From Coleofasciculus chthonoplastes F2-STO-03 (GTDB lineage Bacteria; Cyanobacteriota; Cyanobacteriia; Cyanobacteriales; Coleofasciculaceae), in assembly GCA_040222015.1 (NCBI GenBank), contig JAVJWO010000130.1:64001-128000 (forward strand): a DNA stretch of 64,000 bases, given 5' to 3'. The notes under the pieces are model-generated. The model did no database searches. It was not told the DNA's origin and saw nothing but the letters and a program-made list of their open reading frames with translations. Both the position numbers and the translations under genes were made by a program. Of the stretch, positions 22,961 through 44,033 are shown in pieces (position 1 is the stretch's first letter; each line of letters opens with the position of its first letter).

Positions 22961-23073
22961 CCCCCTCATCCCCTAACCCCAACTCCGGACCGTGGGGAGA
23001 AGGGGGATCGGATTCTCTTACTCCCCTCTTGCTCCCCTCTCCCAAGCTTGGGAGAGGGGCTGGGGGTGAGGGG
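22961..23073. repeat. GC-rich double-hairpin palindromic element (CCCCTCTCCC...GGGAGAGGGG family)
   Basis: CCCCTCATCCCC... / ...GGGGGTGAGGGG ends; same family as 37315-37908 and 39924-40030. Confidence 0.85.
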
Positions 23074-35395: not shown

Positions 35396-36109
35396 TTGAA
35401 TATGAGTTTAAAGGCAGTTCTGTTTGATTTCAACGGCGTGATTATCAACGATGAGTCGATTCATCAGCAACTCATCGAAGACATTCTGCTGGGCGAAAAT
35501 CTGCGTCCCTCGGCGTCGGATTACTGGGAGGATTGTTTGGGGCGTAGCGATCGCGCTTGCTTAAAAGTATTATTGGAGAAACGAGGTCGGGTGGTGAGTG
35601 ATGACGACTTAACCCGTTTAATCTCCCGAAAAGCCGACGCCTACCGCCGTCAACTGGAATCTCTATCTGAATTACCCATATATCCGGGAGTCGAAGATTT
35701 AATTTACAAAATCCGCGTGGCTCAATTACCCATGGGAGTGGTGAGTGGTGCTTTGCGACAGGAAGTTGAGTTAGTCTTGGATCGGGCTAACCTATTGCAA
35801 TATTTTCCGGTTATTGTGGCAGGTGATGACATCAAGGTGAGTAAACCGGAACCGGATGGCTATCTGTTAGCGGTGGAACGCCTCAATCAGCAGTTTCCAG
35901 AACTTAATGCCAAATCCTCAGATTGTCTCGCTATAGAAGATACACCGGCGGGTATTGAAGCCGCCAAACGAGCCGGGATGCAAGTCGTCGGCGTTGCTAA
36001 TACCTATCCCTTCCACATGCTTCAGCGTCAAGCCGATTGGACGGTTGATTATCTGCATCAGCTTGAACTTGAACGAGTGCAGGAAGTTTATGCTCAAGTT
36101 GTGGGTTAG
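35396..36109 (+). CDS. HAD-superfamily hydrolase
   Basis: LFDFNGVIIND, KPEPDGY, IEDTPAGIEAAKRAGM. Confidence 0.92.
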   Translation: MNMSLKAVLFDFNGVIINDESIHQQLIEDILLGENLRPSASDYWEDCLGRSDRACLKVLLEKRGRVVSDDDLTRLISRKADAYRRQLESLSELPIYPGVEDLIYKIRVAQLPMGVVSGALRQEVELVLDRANLLQYFPVIVAGDDIKVSKPEPDGYLLAVERLNQQFPELNAKSSDCLAIEDTPAGIEAAKRAGMQVVGVANTYPFHMLQRQADWTVDYLHQLELERVQEVYAQVVG

Positions 36110-36174
36110 TAACCATGAGCCATGAATCATGAACTATAAACCAATACCCGCAAGTGTTACAATAAACCTAGTCC

Positions 36175-36247
36175 GGGGAATTAGCTCAGTTGGTAGAGCG
36201 CTGCGATCGCACCGCAGAGGTCACCGGTTCAAATCCGGTATTCTCCA
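36175..36247 (+). tRNA. tRNA-Ala (anticodon CGC)
   Basis: GGGGAAT acceptor stem with G3:U70, TAGCTCAGTTGGTAGAGC D arm, CTGCG-ATCGCAC-CGCAG anticodon arm, GGTTCAAATCC T loop; 73 nt. Confidence 0.96.
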
Positions 36248-36277
36248 TTTGTGTCGATTGCCACATTATTTGTCATT

Positions 36278-36383
36278 TATAGCAATAGACACATCGATTA
36301 GGACGTTCGGCACCATTGTAGAGACGCGCCATGGCGCGTCTCTACATAAATGATGTGTCCTAACAGCCATGGCGGTTGCTATA
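36278..36383. mobile_element. 106-bp TA-flanked MITE, copy 1
   Basis: TATAGCAA...TTGCTATA ends, central palindrome GTAGAGACGCGCCATGGCGCGTCTCTAC; identical by eye to 52446-52551. Confidence 0.85.
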
Positions 36384-36555
36384 AATCCTTCACGCAAAAC
36401 TTCAGTGAAAGTTGTAGGGGCGTTGGTTGCCCGATCAAAAGCCGATACCGTCGGAGTAAAATACTCAATGGAAGAGTTGCAGCTCGGTGGCGATGATGGT
36501 CGTTTGCATCCCAATCGGCGAGAATTGAAATCCTGAGTGATTTAGCGTTAGAGCT

Positions 36556-39500
36556 ATGAATGCAGTCGAAATCGAAGAAGCCGTTTCCCAACTCGCTGAA
36601 GCTCCCTTTGACCCAGAGGAGTTTCCTTTTGCCTTCCTTGAAGCGTTTGGAAATAAGAAAACGACGATTAAACGGCTCAAGAGTCAGCGCAACAGTACCA
36701 ACAAATCTGATCTGGATGGGGTTCTCCAGCGCAACAATATCCACATTAAGGTTTGCCTAGAAGGGGAAGTCACCGATACCCTCACGGCTTTGCGGGAGAG
36801 TCCAGCGACTGCTAAACAAAAGGCAAAGTTTATCTTAGCGACAGATGGCAAAAGCCTGGAAGCGGAAAATTTAGCTGATGGAGAAACTATTGTCTGTGAC
36901 TATCCTGAGTTTCATAACCATTTTGGTTTCTTTTTACCGTTGGCGGGGATTACGACGGTTAAGCAAATTCGGGAAAATGCCTTTGATATTAAGGCGACAG
37001 GGCGACTCAATAAACTCTACGTCGAACTGCTCAATGAAAACCCCGACTGGGACAGCGCAGAACGTCGGGAGGAACTCAACCATTTGATGGCTCGGCTGAT
37101 TTTCTGCTTTTTCGCCGAAGATACGAATATTTTTTACAGTAATAATTTATTCACCGATACCATCGCGCAGATGAGTGCGGGGGATTCGTCGAATACCCAT
37201 GAGGTGCTAGAGGAGCTATTTCGGGCAATGGCAACCCCGCTCAAGCAACGGGAAAAGGCAGGAATCCGCAACTGGGCGAATGGCTTTCCCTATGTGAATG
37301 GGGGGCTGTTTAGTCCTCACCCCCTAACCCCTTCTCCTCTCTCCCCATCTGGGAGAGGGGCTGGGGGTGAGGGTAATAGTTTAGGAAAATACCCCCATCC
37401 CCTAGCCCCTTCCCCCAAGCAGAGGGAAGGGGGACAAGAGACTATGAGTGAGGGCAAATACTGGGAGATTCCCCCTGCACTCAAGAAAAAAATGACCGAA
37501 GTTGCTCGTCAGTTCCGCAAGGAACCTACTCCTAGTGAAAAGATCCTCTGGCAAGCTCTGCGGGGACGCAAACTAGAAGGACGAAAATTTCGACGACAAC
37601 AGCCTATTGGCGCATTTATTGTTGATTTCTTTTGTGGAGCAGAACGGCTAATTGTGGAGGTGGATGGAGGTATCCATCAATCACAGCAAGAGGCGGACCA
37701 ACAGCGTCAGGAGTTGTTGGAGTCGTTAGGACTCAAGGTTGTTCGGGTTTCGAGTGAGTTGGTGGAGACGAATTTAGCTGAGGCTTTGGCAGTCGTGCGT
37801 CAGGGGTTTAGCCCCCATCCCCTAACCCCTTCCCCCAAGCAGGGGGAAGGGGGACAAGAAACTCCGACTCCCCTCTCCCCATCTGGGAGAGGGGCTGGGG
37901 GTGAGGGTCTTATCGTGCCACGTTTTAGCCGGATTGCTCGATCTTACTTGCTTCATGTAGGCAATCTCGACTGGACGAAGATCAACCCGGATATTTTCGG
38001 CTCGATGATTCAGGCGGTGGCAGATGAAGACGAGCGCGGGGCGTTGGGGATGCACTATACCAGTGTGCCGAATATCCTCAAGGTGCTGAATCCGTTGTTT
38101 TTGGATGATTTGCGCGAGCAACTGGCAGCAGCCGGGGATAATGGGCGTAAGTTGCTGAATCTGCGGAAACGGCTGGCACGGATTCGGGTGTTTGACCCCG
38201 CTTGTGGGTCGGGTAATTTTTTGGTGATTGCCTATAAGGAAATGCGGGCAATTGAGGCGGAGATTAACCAGCGCCGGGGGGAGGCGGATCGGGCTTCGGA
38301 GATTCCCTTGACGAATTTTCGGGGAATTGAGATTCGGCATTTTTCCTGTGAGATTGCGCGGTTGGCGTTGATTATTGCCGAGTATCAGTGTGATGTGTTG
38401 TATCGGGGGCAACGGTTGGCGTTGGCGGAGTTTTTGCCCTTGAAGGCGGAGAATTGGATCACCTGTGGAAATGCGTTGCGGTTGGATTGGTTGAGTTTGT
38501 GTCCGCCGACGGATAAGGGGGTGAGGGTGCAACGGGAGGATTTGGATTTGTGGCAGGAAACGCGGGATGAGGCAGAGATTGAGTTTGAGAATGAGGGGGG
38601 AGAAACTTATATTTGTGGGAATCCGCCTTACTTGGGTTCAACGTGGCAATCGAAGGAACAAAAAGCAGAAATCAGAGACGTAGTAAATAATAGGACTAAA
38701 TCACCTGGTTTTTTAGATTATGTTTCCGGTTGGTTTATCAAAGCAGCAGACTGGTTGCAGCATTCTGAGGGTCGCGCTGCATTTGTGTCTACTAATTCAA
38801 TCTGTCAAGGGCAAATGGTGCCTTTACTCTGGCAAATCATTTGGAATGCCGATTGCGAAATCTTATTTGCCCATACTTCATTCAAATGGTCAAACCTTGC
38901 AAGTCATAATGCCGGGGTTACTGTCGCTATCGTTTGTATAGGTCGTACATCAAACGATCAAAAGGCTTTATTTGAAATAGATCAGTATGGAAAAACATCT
39001 GTAAGACTAGGTTCAGCAATTAATCCTTATTTGACATTTGGTAACTTCGTTATCGTCAAGAAGACTACTAAACCAATCTCTAAACGTGCAGTTATGGAAT
39101 TTGGAAATAAACCAAGTGACGGAGGAAATCTTCTCGTCTCGCGAGAAGAGATAAACAATCTGGGTTTAAGCACCGAGCAGAAGAGACGATTCCTAAGAAC
39201 TATCGTCGGCTCTGGCGATTTCATTAATGGGAATTCTAGATACTGTATTTGGATTGAGGATTCGCATTTAGAAGAAGCACTTTCCATTGAACCTATTGCT
39301 AGACGAGTTGAATTAGTTAGGAAGATACGGTTAGCTAGTCGAGATAAAGGAGCAAATGCTCTTGCACAAAGGGCGCATCAATTAAAGTTGATGAGGATAG
39401 GGAAGCAAAGTAGTATCGTAGTTCCAGCAGTTTCATCTGAGCGCAGGAACTACTTACCCGCAGGTCTGATTGATAGAAATACGACAATTACAAATGCTGC

Positions 39501-39912
39501 CTTCGCTCTCTACGATGCTCCACTTTGGAACATGGCAATCATCGCCTCCCGCCTTCACCTCGTCTGGATTGCCACCGTCTGCGGTAAACTTGAAACCCGA
39601 TATCGCTACTCCAACACCCTTGGCTGGAACACCTTCCCCGTCCCCACCCTCACCGAACAAAACAAAACCGACCTCACCTGTTGTGCTGAAGACATCCTCC
39701 TGGCGCGGGAACAGTATTTCCCTGCTACCATTGCCGATATGTACGACCCAGAGCGCATGGACAAAGAGTTTCCCCTAGTGCGAGAAGCCCATGAACGCAA
39801 TGATGAAGTGCTAGAGCGCATTTACATCGGTCGTCGCTTCAAAAACGATACCGAACGCTTAGAGAAACTGTTTGAGCTTTATACGAAAATGACCGCGCCG
39901 AAATCTTCCTAA
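36556..39912 (+). CDS. MmeI/YeeA-like N6-adenine DNA methyltransferase with in-frame DUF559 insertion
   Basis: FPYVNGGLF, INPDIFG, GMHYTS, FDPACGSGNF (motif I), GNPPY (motif IV), FVSTNSICQG, YRYSNTLGWNTFP. Confidence 0.92.
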   Translation: MNAVEIEEAVSQLAEAPFDPEEFPFAFLEAFGNKKTTIKRLKSQRNSTNKSDLDGVLQRNNIHIKVCLEGEVTDTLTALRESPATAKQKAKFILATDGKSLEAENLADGETIVCDYPEFHNHFGFFLPLAGITTVKQIRENAFDIKATGRLNKLYVELLNENPDWDSAERREELNHLMARLIFCFFAEDTNIFYSNNLFTDTIAQMSAGDSSNTHEVLEELFRAMATPLKQREKAGIRNWANGFPYVNGGLFSPHPLTPSPLSPSGRGAGGEGNSLGKYPHPLAPSPKQREGGQETMSEGKYWEIPPALKKKMTEVARQFRKEPTPSEKILWQALRGRKLEGRKFRRQQPIGAFIVDFFCGAERLIVEVDGGIHQSQQEADQQRQELLESLGLKVVRVSSELVETNLAEALAVVRQGFSPHPLTPSPKQGEGGQETPTPLSPSGRGAGGEGLIVPRFSRIARSYLLHVGNLDWTKINPDIFGSMIQAVADEDERGALGMHYTSVPNILKVLNPLFLDDLREQLAAAGDNGRKLLNLRKRLARIRVFDPACGSGNFLVIAYKEMRAIEAEINQRRGEADRASEIPLTNFRGIEIRHFSCEIARLALIIAEYQCDVLYRGQRLALAEFLPLKAENWITCGNALRLDWLSLCPPTDKGVRVQREDLDLWQETRDEAEIEFENEGGETYICGNPPYLGSTWQSKEQKAEIRDVVNNRTKSPGFLDYVSGWFIKAADWLQHSEGRAAFVSTNSICQGQMVPLLWQIIWNADCEILFAHTSFKWSNLASHNAGVTVAIVCIGRTSNDQKALFEIDQYGKTSVRLGSAINPYLTFGNFVIVKKTTKPISKRAVMEFGNKPSDGGNLLVSREEINNLGLSTEQKRRFLRTIVGSGDFINGNSRYCIWIEDSHLEEALSIEPIARRVELVRKIRLASRDKGANALAQRAHQLKLMRIGKQSSIVVPAVSSERRNYLPAGLIDRNTTITNAAFALYDAPLWNMAIIASRLHLVWIATVCGKLETRYRYSNTLGWNTFPVPTLTEQNKTDLTCCAEDILLAREQYFPATIADMYDPERMDKEFPLVREAHERNDEVLERIYIGRRFKNDTERLEKLFELYTKMTAPKSS
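37315..37908 (+). mobile_element. Repeat-flanked DUF559 (Vsr-like endonuclease) cassette, 594 bp, in frame
   Basis: ARQFRKEPTPSEKILWQALR...KFRRQQPIG.FIVDF...LIVEVDGGIH...LKVVRV between PHPLTPSP and GRGAGGEG repeats. Confidence 0.8.
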
Positions 39913-39923
39913 ACGTAGTATTC

Positions 39924-40030
39924 GCCCTCATCCCCCAGCCCCTTCTCCCAATCTGGGAGAAGGGGAGCAAGAAGGAGAATCTGTTTCAAAGTCCCTCTCC
40001 TGTTTTGGGAGAGGGATTTAGGGTGAGGGC
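39924..40030. repeat. GC-rich double-hairpin palindromic element, same family as 22961-23073
   Basis: GCCCTCATCCCCC...GGGTGAGGGC ends with two internal CTCC/GGAG hairpins; lies between convergent genes. Confidence 0.88.
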
Positions 40031-40032
40031 AA

Positions 40033-40599
40033 TCAGAAAGCAATGTCTTCGTACAGGTTAGTCAACTCGGCTTCAAACTCAAGGCTAGTCAGGTGAAAAG
40101 TGTTGTGACTGGGGGCATAGAATTGAAATAACCACAGCCCTTCCTCGGTACGACGGTAACAGTCTACCCGTTGCTGTCTGGTACTAATCAAGACATATTC
40201 TTGCAGACTGTCGAGGGTTTGATAGTCGATGAATTTATCCCCTCGGTCAAAGGCTTCGGTGGAGTCAGAGAGGACTTCAATGATTAGTTTGGGATAACGC
40301 TTATAGGTAGTAGTTTCTGCGTCGCGGGGGTCACAAGTCACCATCAAATCAGGATAGTAGTAACAGTTGCACTCTTCAAGTCTGGCTTTGACATCGGCAA
40401 AATAGACGCGACAGTCTGACCCCCGTAAATGGCTACGAATCAGCGTAACAAGGTTGATAGCAATAGTATTATGAGCATCGGTTGTCCCCGCCATAGCATA
40501 GGCTTCACCATTGCGATATTCGTGTTTGGTGTCGCTGGTGGCTTCGAGTTGGAGGTATTCGTCAGGAGAGAGGTAATAATTGTCTGGGGTAGCAATCAT
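40033..40599 (-). CDS. Uma2-family endonuclease
   Basis: KHEYRNGEAYAMAG, YYPDLMVTCD, PKLIIEVLSDSTEAFDRGDKF. Confidence 0.92.
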   Translation of the reverse strand: MIATPDNYYLSPDEYLQLEATSDTKHEYRNGEAYAMAGTTDAHNTIAINLVTLIRSHLRGSDCRVYFADVKARLEECNCYYYPDLMVTCDPRDAETTTYKRYPKLIIEVLSDSTEAFDRGDKFIDYQTLDSLQEYVLISTRQQRVDCYRRTEEGLWLFQFYAPSHNTFHLTSLEFEAELTNLYEDIAF

Positions 40600-41011: not shown

Positions 41012-41329
41012 GTGAAAATTCTCATTGATACCATTGCCGAATTCTGTCGCAAATGGAACGTTATCGAATTTGCGCTATTTGGCTCTGTTTTGCGTGATGA
41101 TTTTCGCCCAGACAGCGACATCGACGTTATGGTGAAATTTCACCCTGACGCTCATCCCAAATTCAGCACCCTAGACCAAATGGAAGGGGAACTGAGGACA
41201 ATCTTTGACCGGGATGTGGATTTAGTGACTCGCCCTGGGGTTGAAGCCAGTCGTAATTATTTACGTCGTAATACCATCCTCTCCTCTGCTCAGGTGATTT
41301 ATGCAACGAAATCTCCAATTTCTGCTTGA
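41012..41329 (+). CDS. Minimal nucleotidyltransferase (MNT antitoxin)
   Basis: LFGSVLRDDFRPDSDIDV, RDVDLVT. Confidence 0.88.
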   Translation: MKILIDTIAEFCRKWNVIEFALFGSVLRDDFRPDSDIDVMVKFHPDAHPKFSTLDQMEGELRTIFDRDVDLVTRPGVEASRNYLRRNTILSSAQVIYATKSPISA

Positions 41330-41371
41330 TATGCTGCAATCGGCGGAGTTGATCGAAATCTATATCGCCCA
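41301..41371 (+). pseudogene. 5' fragment of a HEPN/DUF86 toxin
   Basis: MQRNLQFLLDMLQSAELIEIY overlaps the MNT stop as in MNT-HEPN pairs, then breaks off. Confidence 0.6.
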
Positions 41372-41704
41372 ATGGCTACGCTACTTACAGAAATACGTCA
41401 GAAATTTGCTGAGGAACGGTTTGAATTTTCCAAACACGCTGTCGATCAATCCATCTTACGAAAAATTCGAGTTCAAGAAATCAGAGAAGTGATTGCCAAT
41501 GGTCAAATTATTGAGGACTACCCAGAAGATAAATACGGTCCTAGTTGTTTAATTTTAGGTTTGACAGCGATGAAACGTCCGCTTCACATTCAGTGCAGTT
41601 ATCCTACCCGTTCACTGGTCAAAATTATTACACTATACGAACCCAACCCCCAAAAATGGAATAACAACTTTACGCAAAGGAGACTAAATAGCGATGACGC
41701 CTAA
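41372..41704 (+). CDS. DUF4258-like putative toxin
   Basis: FSKHAVDQ, IIEDYPEDKYGPSCLILG, RPLHIQCS, IITLYEP. Confidence 0.75.
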   Translation: MATLLTEIRQKFAEERFEFSKHAVDQSILRKIRVQEIREVIANGQIIEDYPEDKYGPSCLILGLTAMKRPLHIQCSYPTRSLVKIITLYEPNPQKWNNNFTQRRLNSDDA

Positions 41705-41951: not shown

Positions 41952-44033
41952 TTGCCCATGACCAAACCTAACACCATTCCCGCCGTTTCCGTCACCTACG
42001 CCCAAGCTGGTACTTCCACTCGCCTCAATGAACTAGGGATGCGCCCGATGCAGGAACGGGCTTACCAAAAGCGGGGAGAACAATACCTGTTGATTAAATC
42101 CCCCCCTGCCTCTGGTAAAAGTCGCGCCCTGATGTTCATCGCCCTGGATAAGCTCGAAAACCAGGGATTACAACAAGCCATTATCGTTGTCCCTGAAAAG
42201 TCCATCGGGGCAAGTTTTCACAATGAACCCTTGAGTCAGTTTGGCTTCTGGGCAGATTGGCAAGTTGAACCCAAGTGGAACCTCTGCGACGCACCTGGAA
42301 CCGATGGGGGTAAGGTCGATGCAGTTCGGAAATTCCTTGATAGTGAAGCGAAAGTGCTGGTCTGTACCCATGCCACCTTTCGCTTTGCCGTGGATAAATT
42401 CGGCGTGGAAGCCCTGGATAACCGCTTAATTGCCGTCGATGAGTTTCACCACATTTCCGCCAACCCCGACAACAAATTAGGCGATATTATACGTCAACTG
42501 ATGACCCGCGACAAAACCCACATTGTCGCCATGACGGGTTCTTATTTTCGCGGGGATGCCGAAGCGGTGCTACATCCTGATGATGAGGCGAGATTTGATA
42601 CCGTCACCTACACCTATTACGAACAACTCAACGGCTATCAATACCTCAAACAACTGGATATCGGCTACTACTTCTATGCAGGAAGCTACACCGACGCAAT
42701 CATGGAGGTACTCAATCCCCAGGAGAAGACCATTATCCACATCCCCAATGTCAACTCCCGCGAAAGTACCAAAGATAAAATCCGCGAAGTCGAACACATC
42801 ATCGAGGAACTAGGAGAATGGCAAGGAACTGACCCCGCAACCGGGTTTCAACTCGTACAAACCGCCGATGGTAAACTCTTGAAGATTGCCGACCTCGTAG
42901 ACGACGACCCCAGCAAGCGAGATAAGGTCACGGCTAGTCTGAAAGACCCCAGCCAGAAAAATAAGCGCGATCGCGTGGATATCATTATCGCCCTGGGTAT
43001 GGCAAAAGAAGGCTTCGACTGGATTTGGTGCGAACACGCCCTTACCATCGGCTATCGTTCCAGCCTCACCGAGATTGTCCAAATCATCGGTCGCGCCACC
43101 CGTGATGCCCCAGGGAAAACCCGCGCCCGTTTCACCAACCTCATCGCTGAACCGGATGCCAGCGAAACTGCCGTCACCGAGGCAGTCAACGACACCCTCA
43201 AAGCCATTGCTGCCAGCCTCTTGATGGAACAGGTACTTGCCCCCCGCTTCGAGTTCAAACCCAAAAACCCCAACAATCAACCCACTCCAGGCTTTGACTA
43301 CGGAGAAAATGGCTACAATCCCCAGGGGTGTAATGTGGGAGTCAATGCAGAAACGGGACAAATTCAACTGGAAATTAAAGGACTCGCTGAACCCAAAAGC
43401 CAGGAAGCCCAACGGGTTTGTCGGGAGGACTTAACCGAACTGGTGACAGCTTTTGTCCAAGATAAGCCCACCATCGAGCGGGGCTTGTTCGATGAAGAAC
43501 TGGTGCCAGAAGAACTGACCCAGGTGCGGATGGGCAAAATTATCAAAGAGAAATTTCCCAACTTTGAACACGAGGATCAAGAAGCAGTTCGCCAACACGC
43601 GATCGCGGCGCTTAACCTCGTCCAACAAGCCAAGCAAACCGTAAATGAAAAGGGTGGGACGTATAATGTAAATCCCCGTGAGGTTGAAGGGACGAAAAAC
43701 ACCGCCCTCATCGACGGAATCAGGCAGTTCGCCCTCTCGGTCACGGAACTGGACATGGATTTGATTGATCGCATCAATCCCTTTGGGGAAGCCTACGCCA
43801 TTCTAGCTAAGTCCATGAGCGAAGAACGGCTCAAGCAAGTCGCAGCAGTCATTGCTGCCAAGCGGGTCAGCCTCTCGGTTGATGAAGCCAGAGAACTCGC
43901 CAAACGCGCCGTGCGATTCAAGCAGGAACGGGGGCGATTACCCTCCCTCACGGCAACTGACCCCTGGGAAAAACGCATGGCAGAAGGGGTGGCATTCCTG
44001 CAACGTAAAGTGAAGGAGGAAAACAATGGTTAA
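41952..44033 (+). CDS. YeeB-like superfamily 2 helicase
   Basis: SPPASGKS, DEFHH, MTGSYFRGD, EGFDW, QIIGRATRD. Confidence 0.88.
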   Translation: MPMTKPNTIPAVSVTYAQAGTSTRLNELGMRPMQERAYQKRGEQYLLIKSPPASGKSRALMFIALDKLENQGLQQAIIVVPEKSIGASFHNEPLSQFGFWADWQVEPKWNLCDAPGTDGGKVDAVRKFLDSEAKVLVCTHATFRFAVDKFGVEALDNRLIAVDEFHHISANPDNKLGDIIRQLMTRDKTHIVAMTGSYFRGDAEAVLHPDDEARFDTVTYTYYEQLNGYQYLKQLDIGYYFYAGSYTDAIMEVLNPQEKTIIHIPNVNSRESTKDKIREVEHIIEELGEWQGTDPATGFQLVQTADGKLLKIADLVDDDPSKRDKVTASLKDPSQKNKRDRVDIIIALGMAKEGFDWIWCEHALTIGYRSSLTEIVQIIGRATRDAPGKTRARFTNLIAEPDASETAVTEAVNDTLKAIAASLLMEQVLAPRFEFKPKNPNNQPTPGFDYGENGYNPQGCNVGVNAETGQIQLEIKGLAEPKSQEAQRVCREDLTELVTAFVQDKPTIERGLFDEELVPEELTQVRMGKIIKEKFPNFEHEDQEAVRQHAIAALNLVQQAKQTVNEKGGTYNVNPREVEGTKNTALIDGIRQFALSVTELDMDLIDRINPFGEAYAILAKSMSEERLKQVAAVIAAKRVSLSVDEARELAKRAVRFKQERGRLPSLTATDPWEKRMAEGVAFLQRKVKEENNG

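Follow-up and report, generated by a model that had tools for sequence, protein, structure and literature searches.

Organization of the cassette and its host gene

The 64,000-nt stretch of the Coleofasciculus chthonoplastes F2-STO-03 genome analyzed in the present study (contig JAVJWO010000130.1, positions 64,001 to 128,000; hereafter the window) contains a gene for an MmeI-family restriction-modification enzyme into which a cassette encoding a DUF559 nuclease is inserted in frame. The genome of the window (7.7 Mb) is designated G000; G002, its congener, and G003, G010, and G028 are related genomes. The positions of the gene, the cassette, and their parts are listed in Table 1.

The insert consists of exactly 198 stop-free codons. 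The host sequence FPYVNGGLFS ends at Ser253 (position 37314), and LIVPRF begins at Leu452 (position 37909). According to Pfam, the insert lies between MmeI_hel and MmeI_Mtase, namely, between the helical spacer and the methyltransferase. The cassette is translated in frame with its host, if it is translated at all.

A preliminary description of this locus, made from the sequence, regarded the host as a DNA methyltransferase. The gene encodes a complete MmeI-family restriction-modification enzyme, which includes a methyltransferase domain. All five domains of the family were detected in order, each above the cut-off of 27 bits (MmeI_N, residues 1–160; MmeI_hel, 172–252; MmeI_Mtase, 524–807; MmeI_TRD, 831–1032; MmeI_C, 1035–1114), and the protein matched the MmeI structure (PDB 5HR4) with an E value of 2e-130. 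The same description proposed that the cassette adds a nuclease to a methyltransferase lacking one. This proposal was not supported; MmeI_N of the host is full (E 1e-36), and the N-terminal domain is also present in homologues without the cassette. Regarding the N-terminal D...ExK motif of MmeI, PDB alignments began only at MmeI residue 103–109, and a search with the N-terminal 180 aa alone gave no match.

The core of the cassette matched DUF559 (PF04480) with 105.2 bits against a cut-off of 20.6 (residues 312–412) and the DUF559 structure PDB 3HRL with an E value of 8e-19. Its catalytic motif, D-F-x-C ... E-x-D-G-x-x-H, is intact as VDFFC ... EVDGGIH, and the ATG at 37444 is present in the window allele. 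Two pairs of direct repeats built of GC-rich hairpins bracket the core: an inner pair (37392–37443 with 37812–37863, 94% identity) and an outer pair (37326–37374 with 37860–37908, 92% identity). A spacer separates the left outer repeat from the left inner repeat, and the left outer repeat has a second arm pair (37336–37345/37351–37360, 90% complementary). The repeats encode Pro/Gly-rich stretches. These linkers were predicted to be disordered (predicted score in the local distance difference test [pLDDT] <50 at residues 254–307 and 420–511) in a weak AlphaFold2 model of the whole protein, which was based on a 46-row alignment (mean pLDDT 62, predicted template modeling score 0.31) and used for linker disorder only. 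The named proteins closest to the cassette were from Coleofasciculus (97–98% identity). The 594-bp in-frame insert, the domain with its own ATG, the two repeat pairs, and the Pro/Gly linkers all agree with the preliminary description.

Table 1. Positions of the features discussed in the text, counted from the first letter of the window
Feature	Positions	Strand	Basis
Host gene for an MmeI-family type IIL restriction-modification enzyme (1118 aa with the insert), open throughout	36556–39912	+	Pfam, PDB 5HR4
Host, N-terminal to the insert: nuclease-type domain (MmeI_N) and helical spacer, with FPYVNGGLFS at the end	36556–37314	+	Open reading frame, Pfam
Cassette, 594 bp, residues 254–451, in the host frame	37315–37908	+	Open reading frame, repeats
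Left outer repeat: truncated B half fused to hairpin A, translation PHPLTPSPLSPSGRGAGGEG	37315–37374	+	Arms 37315–37324/37363–37372 (100%)
Left inner repeat (hairpin B), translation PHPLAPSPKQREGGQE	37392–37443	+	Direct repeat
DUF559 (Vsr/EDxHD-clade PD-(D/E)XK) nuclease core, M297–F418	37444–37809	+	Pfam PF04480, PDB 3HRL, motif
Right inner repeat (hairpin B; arms 37826–37836/37842–37852, 100%)	37812–37863	+	Direct repeat
Right outer repeat (hairpin A; arms 37870–37879/37885–37894, 100%)	37860–37908	+	Direct repeat, motif pattern
Host, C-terminal to the insert: LIVPRFSRIARSYLL..., with the methyltransferase domain, the target-recognition domain, and the C-terminal domain	37909–39912	+	Open reading frame, Pfam
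Low-divergence tract relative to G002: cassette and approximately 100 nt of host on each side	37212–38018		7 differences in 807 nt
tRNA-Ala(CGC), directly 5' of the host gene	36175–36247	+	ARAGORN; Rfam tRNA, 68.9 bits

Allele states at the MmeI site

A homologue search with the C-terminal 668 residues of the host returned thousands of matches, mostly of 912–935 aa and without DUF559. Allele states were scored on 115 fetched MmeI-type proteins that were anchored on two flanking motifs. Empty alleles with the 7-residue linker SGxVEVP accounted for 74 of these proteins, and one further protein had 11 residues at this position. Six solo alleles had 33–65 residues of repeat units only, and 34 filled alleles had 189–618 residues. 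Seven residues separate NG(K/G)LF from (Q/R)F(D/S)K in MmeI (5HR4) and in the profile of empty homologues. We concluded that the cassette is an insertion relative to most homologues.

A host tree was constructed with FastTree from 106 rows, nine of the 115 proteins being left out for short flanks. One clade mixes 30 filled, 18 empty, and 6 solo rows, which are interleaved, and the remaining 52 rows are all empty. The filled state requires a minimum of 14 changes on this tree, and 11 of these changes are forced by well-supported branches. The sporadic presence at one precise site that is expected of a homing endonuclease gene was found among these alleles.

The solo allele P0133 is sister to the clade of the window (support 100). 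It has the same right junction as the window allele (LIVP), and its repeats are arranged as an outer repeat, a spacer, and one inner-plus-outer (B-A) unit. This order is the product expected from recombination between the two inner repeats (B by B) of the window allele, with loss of the nuclease.

Filled alleles also varied in repeat number and copy number. The Limnospira protein P0002 (1545 aa) has six plus eight tandem 38-residue repeat units around one core, and in P0012 (1538 aa), the whole cassette and a host segment are duplicated in tandem. When the left host junction was compared with the end of the core, the residue after Phe was the same in 12 of 29 distinct alleles, which is not clearly more than expected by chance.

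Features of introns, inteins, and transposons

The sporadic, site-specific distribution of the cassette resembles that of inteins and introns. Splicing therefore has to be considered; the cassette would then be excised at the RNA or protein level and be missing from the mature enzyme. The sequence features of the insert make this explanation hardly credible. No Rfam intron family matched at E <= 1 over 36000–40500, where only the tRNA and sub-threshold hairpin matches were obtained, and no Hint/intein family of Pfam was detected in the host protein. Inteins need an N-terminal Cys/Ser and a Cys/Ser/Thr at +1, whereas the first residue of the insert is Pro254 and the next host residue is Leu452; the features of inteins and of group I/II introns were not found in the cassette by Pfam, Rfam, or junction residues. 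Moreover, P0117, a DUF1156 methylase of 1631 aa from a metagenome, carries a true intein (LAGLIDADG_3 and Hint_2, precomputed Pfam) besides a DUF559 cassette, which indicates that the two are distinct things. P0117 also has a repeat-only insert.

In four metatranscriptome runs, no contig bridged 37314|37315 or 37908|37909 with 31 letters on both sides, the contigs being fragmentary. The contigs were 90–95% like the window and probably derived from relatives, and one low-depth contig spanned 37431–37577; they are uninformative on retention or removal of the cassette.

Terminal inverted repeats and a target-site duplication, which are features of transposons and of MITEs (miniature transposable elements with inverted repeats), were not seen at 37314|37315 and 37908|37909. 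Approximately four host codons of the empty linker are replaced, not duplicated, in the filled allele. The host DNA coding for FPYVNGGL (37284–37308) shows 72% identity over 25 nt to the core of hairpin A (37339–37363, 37873–37897). The insertion site may resemble the element's own repeat, with chance as an alternative explanation for this 25-nt likeness.

Other copies and insertion sites

Four DUF559 matches were found in G000; two are in frame within other genes (the MmeI gene and hsdR), and two are free-standing. The cassette in hsdR (G000:C179:84544–88317; L040 1545–5321) belongs to a different DUF559 subfamily. It lies just before the Walker A motif (GSGKS) and is flanked by direct repeats of roughly 100 nt, and residues 297–511 of the HsdR protein are exactly the ones missing from three full-length HsdR homologues in relatives. 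The hsdR linkers of G000 and G002 differ by in-frame gains of 13-residue sub-repeats, the open frames being 1268 and 1356 aa. One free-standing gene (G000:C52:98948–99262; L041 5931–6410, minus strand) has a hairpin resembling the BoxC/PIT/TM(ECO) repeats considered below (TM-like) within its 5' coding part. It is located 85 nt downstream of a type IIG-like methylase gene, which appears to be split into frames of 855 and 308 aa, and upstream of UvrD-like and other helicase genes. The fourth DUF559 gene adjoins a NACHT/pentapeptide gene.

Among 41 related genomes, 9 of 51 DUF559 matches of >=90 bits were in open frames of 389–1400 aa. Their hosts were MmeI-type, HsdR, and other methylase-type proteins, as read off the translations; the Pfam scan covered the two hosts of G000. 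A search with the cassette against longer proteins gave 1239 matches at E <= 1e-10. The 120 matches listed included MmeI-type, Eco57I/N6_Mtase, N6_N4_Mtase, DUF1156, SNF2-helicase, TPR, and AlbA_2 proteins (precomputed Pfam) and represented at least 15 classes of junction context, often with the same Pro/Gly linkers. The hosts are mostly restriction, methyltransferase, and helicase genes. The cores cluster by insertion site (22 label changes versus 62 after shuffling). One clade of cores from N6_N4 methylases is nested within the MmeI-site clade, and two host types share one identical core.

Repeat-only inserts were also encountered at other sites. In a 1400-aa methylase of G028 (L034, G028:C1), a repeat-only insert follows ...LARKLERS, and a full cassette occupies a second, C-terminal site. 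P0079 has a full DUF559 cassette at a position apparently homologous to that of the repeat-only insert.

Divergence and selection

Between G000 and its congener G002, the MmeI gene showed 7 differences in the 594 nt of the cassette and 68 in 1476 nt of the host parts (Fisher 7e-5). In hsdR, 18 of 645 positions differed in the cassette (4 of 345 in the core alone) and 198 of 3129 in the host (p 2e-4). In this comparison, divergence was 2 to 4 times lower in both cassettes than in their host genes. At the MmeI site, synonymous divergence was 0.037 in the core, 0 in the linkers, and 0.15–0.22 in the host. No difference was found in 37212–37422 or in 37699–38018, and 103 and 110 nt of the adjoining host sequence are free of mismatches; therefore, the conserved tract comprises the cassette and approximately 100 nt of host on each side. 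From its sequence, this tract is possibly a co-conversion tract. A history decoupled from or younger than that of the host, with co-converted flanks, is expected of a homing endonuclease gene, and G000 and G002 showed this pattern at two loci. Among 30 filled alleles (435 pairs), the identity of the host was only weakly correlated with that of the core (Spearman 0.37). A further 21 DNA loci, more distantly related, had diverged too far for their synonymous sites to be compared.

The nuclease core is under strong purifying selection. The ratio of non-synonymous to synonymous divergence (dN/dS) of the core was 0.01 between G000 and G003 (17 synonymous changes and 1 non-synonymous change), 0.09 between G028 and G010, 0.09 for the hsdR pair, and 0.01–0.30 over the comparisons. 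Under a strict pattern, the catalytic motif was kept in 119 of 122 related cores. Among the three that failed, P0080 alone lacks the conserved Asp of D-F-x-C; the other two differ at neighboring non-acidic positions. In comparison with G002, dN/dS of the host was 0.11 before the insert and 0.04–0.05 after it, outside a swapped recognition region. This region (approximately 38626–39645, residues ~691–1030) comprises the target-recognition domain and the C-terminal part of the methyltransferase and is swapped between orthologues that are nearly identical elsewhere (G002, P0009), which points to a recombinational change of specificity with the cassette staying put.

These results may be read as those of a domesticated domain, in which DUF559 is now a working part of the restriction enzyme (e.g. 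a second nuclease or nickase) that is maintained by selection on the host, and its mobility is historical only. Such a domain would be constrained and would keep its catalytic motif, as nearly all cores do. The host is also under purifying selection while filled, its recognition domains still diversify, and nearly all hosts are DNA-acting defense enzymes. However, most close homologues are empty, with empty, solo, and filled states interleaved, and the empty alleles have the same N-terminal nuclease-type domain. Furthermore, insertions are found in numerous unrelated positions and folds, a TPR protein being one of the hosts, and at two loci the cassette is younger than its host. We consider domestication to be rather improbable.

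The repeat family

The GGGAGAGGGG arm of the cassette repeats occurs 245 times in the genome, against approximately 8 expected from a composition estimate. The right outer repeat (37871–37907) fits the three-block pattern CCCTCNCCC-N5-GGGNGAGGG-N5-GGGNGAGGG. The pattern published for BoxC/PIT/TM(ECO) repeats is CCCTCNCCC-N3-6-GGGNGAGGG-N3-GGGNGAGGG, as given in the accessible text of Holder et al. (2015; PMC4666352). With the strict 3-nt second loop, 4 sites were found in the genome; with this loop relaxed to 3–6 nt, there were 88 sites, compared with 0 in each of three shuffles and 0 when the pattern was reversed. Genome-wide, the cassette's exact B and A hairpins were found solely at its own two ends (<=2 mismatches). 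Another three-block TM-like copy is present in the window (23035–23072; G000:C130:87035–87072). A conserved flank of the GTCAACTTAAGCT type lies ahead of many TM-like copies in the genome, suggesting that a distinct MITE-like family has the motif in common.

Within 200 nt of 30 DUF559 loci, the density of GC-rich hairpins was 3.64/kb, and 22 of the 30 loci had at least one. The density further out in the same loci was 0.21/kb, 17-fold lower, and the genome-wide value was 0.094/kb. Near-identical pairs of GC-rich hairpins also flank an HNH gene, a DUF4058 gene, and a Uma2 gene pair in G000 (C117:29030–30363, C176:65–1204, and C193:63329–64869, respectively). A position between such hairpin repeats seems to be common to the small nuclease genes of this genome in general.

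The abundance of these repeats raises the issue of whether the nuclease is passive cargo. GC-rich hairpin or triplex repeats would be the active or recombinogenic component, and DUF559 would be carried along between repeat copies by ordinary homologous recombination that it does not drive. The 88 copies of the outer repeat family, the link of this motif type to genomic instability in the accessible parts of Holder et al. (PMC4666352), the repeat numbers that differ between alleles and always remain in frame, the repeat-only in-frame inserts in several hosts, and the hairpin pairs around HNH, DUF4058, and Uma2 genes are all consistent with this explanation. On the other hand, the exact hairpins are confined to the two ends of the cassette, the same linkers accompany the core across genera and host genes, and the cores form site-specific lineages. 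An intact and constrained nuclease is also unneeded in passive cargo. Overall, we regard passive carriage as unlikely.

A broader speculation is that DUF559 cassettes are the autonomous partners of BoxC/PIT/TM repeats. The nuclease would act on the repeat structures, the cassette would enter and duplicate the repeat, and its later loss through recombination of the repeats would leave solo repeats, such that the many dispersed copies in and between genes would be footprints or non-autonomous relatives of a non-spliced in-protein element. This speculation is based on the solo alleles at the exact cassette site, the 17-fold enrichment of hairpins near DUF559 genes, and the fit of the outer repeat to the TM pattern. 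It is weakened by the numbers of both partners. Over 41 genomes, the count of TM-like motifs was correlated with that of DUF559 overall (rho 0.43) but not outside the genus (rho 0.11), which does not support a one-to-one partnership, and one genome had 42 TM-like motifs and zero DUF559 matches. The partnership is doubtful.

A candidate homing-type element

The present results suggest that the cassette is probably a selfish, homing-type element that is translated through as a loop-out domain of its host protein and lost by recombination between its repeats. The nuclease, made as a loop-out domain, would cut an incoming empty or repeat-only allele. Repair from the filled allele would then copy in the cassette together with short host flanks. 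The repeats would act as flexible linkers, such that the host enzyme stays functional. If the flanking direct repeats recombined with each other, the nuclease would be deleted, and a single repeat unit would remain as a scar.

The preliminary description had already proposed a mobile unit that can reside in protein loops owing to its stop-free palindromic ends. The three interleaved allele states, the same cassette and linkers in other hosts, and the higher density of hairpins near DUF559 genes fit this proposal. Its statement that the flanks are only a few residues apart in relatives was correct, and the empty alleles that it recommended seeking were found, not all close homologues being filled. 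Intron and intein signatures were likewise missing in Rfam and Pfam searches, and an in-frame fusion at another DUF559 locus, which it had suggested looking for, was identified in hsdR of the same genome. The association of DUF559 loci with hairpins was borne out as an enrichment, but not as a single palindrome family private to DUF559, because HNH, DUF4058, and Uma2 genes have such hairpins too.

Several points weigh against a homing-type element. Cleavage activity and a target are putative for any DUF559 cassette. There is no stop codon or separate frame, and a free nuclease would consequently be impossible without proteolysis; the G003 allele also lacks the internal ATG of 37444. The deficit of differences in the cassette was not observed between G000 and G003 (dS of 0.35 in the core and 0.23 in the host), and the MmeI host gene is a mosaic with a swapped recognition region, so general recombination could yield the low-divergence tract. 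The near-universal intactness of the nuclease is also compatible with a domesticated domain. Simple homing does not explain why restriction, methylase, and helicase genes are so strongly favored as hosts, and hairpin pairs in G000 flank other small nuclease genes as well. Lastly, the filled rows of the host tree came from the cassette search and the empty rows from the host search; therefore, their proportions on the tree are biased, while the interleaving is unaffected.

Genomic context

The tRNA-Ala(CGC) gene next to the host gene is context only and marks an island-type position. In the 256 nt 5' of the start codon (36300–36555), 171 of 256 positions differ between G000 and G002. These upstream sequences are unrelated, which indicates that the MmeI gene has different surroundings in the two genomes. 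In G002, the filled MmeI-type gene has an extra free-standing DUF559 gene (L036, G002:C45:57136–57444) approximately 0.5 kb upstream of its start. Downstream of the host gene, the window encodes a putative Uma2 endonuclease (40033–40599, minus strand), a nucleotidyltransferase and DUF4258 pair (41012–41704, plus strand), and a DEAD/ResIII helicase (41952–44033, plus strand). These neighbors look like a defense or toxin-antitoxin islet.

Comparison with known elements and implications

Palindromic elements of Rickettsia were reportedly noted by Ogata et al. in 2000 as inserted in frame in protein genes and tolerated as an extra peptide. These and other in-frame bacterial MITEs carry no gene, whereas the repeats in the present case bracket an intact nuclease gene. 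In REP/REPIN systems, copies of a dispersed family of GC-rich hairpins lie on either side of the RAYT gene. The RAYT proteins are tyrosine transposases of the IS200/IS605 type and are not known to lie inside other proteins. A protein gene between dispersed GC-rich hairpins is a shared feature, but DUF559 and motif counts are uncorrelated outside the genus in the present case.

BoxC/PIT/TM(ECO) intrastrand-triplex repeats are described as abundant in cyanobacteria in the accessible text of Holder et al. (2015; PMC4666352). The right outer repeat of the cassette resembles them in its G/C-rich three-block form, CCCTCNCCC - loop - GGGNGAGGG - loop - GGGNGAGGG, with a second loop of 5 nt, and in the dispersal of this form in many copies. 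In contrast, the parts of that report that were available give a 3-nt second loop, assign no protein partner, and do not describe insertions in coding frames.

The DUF559 clade includes a proven homing endonuclease, I-Bth0305I (PDB 3R3P), according to the grouping in the accessible part of PMC3424549. Among Vsr-like/EDxHD homing endonucleases, I-Bth0305I resides in a group I intron, and others occur in 'fractured genes' with split inteins, as far as the accessible portions of PMC3239194 and PMC2677866 describe. The nuclease of the cassette belongs to the same PD-(D/E)XK sub-clade, and these enzymes are nucleases of selfish elements that target conserved gene sites. However, in the text available, they are carried by introns or lie between the halves of split inteins and are taken out of the host product, whereas the present cassette has no splicing partner.

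The nearest published case, judging from the available parts of the report, is the ShiLan-type insertion, which is stop-free and in frame in an actinophage DNA methylase (Arsenault et al. 2025; PMC11855218). Homing-like patterns, no detectable intein or intron features, and a predicted loop-out from the host protein are described there and are similar to the present findings. The ShiLan nuclease is an HNH enzyme in another reading frame, whereas DUF559 is in the frame of its host. In addition, GC-rich direct and hairpin repeats bracket the nuclease in the present case, and the hosts are cellular, cyanobacterial, and occupied at many sites, as opposed to the phage methylase in the text seen. 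A literature search, in which supplements were not covered, did not reveal any account of DUF559 cassettes that are read through within host genes.

A pair of alleles suited to testing is available, namely, a filled one in the window and an empty or solo one in close relatives. If the proposed reading is true, a selfish nuclease element persists in proteins without protein or RNA splicing by using its own repeat ends as flexible linkers, which would give homing elements a third mode of residence in coding sequences, in addition to inteins and introns. It would account for the many cyanobacterial defense enzymes annotated as fusions to a 'very short patch repair endonuclease', and it would represent a natural, tolerated domain insertion in a type IIL enzyme, a scaffold used for engineering specificities. 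The present results may also link a nuclease family of unknown function with unexplained bacterial repeats.

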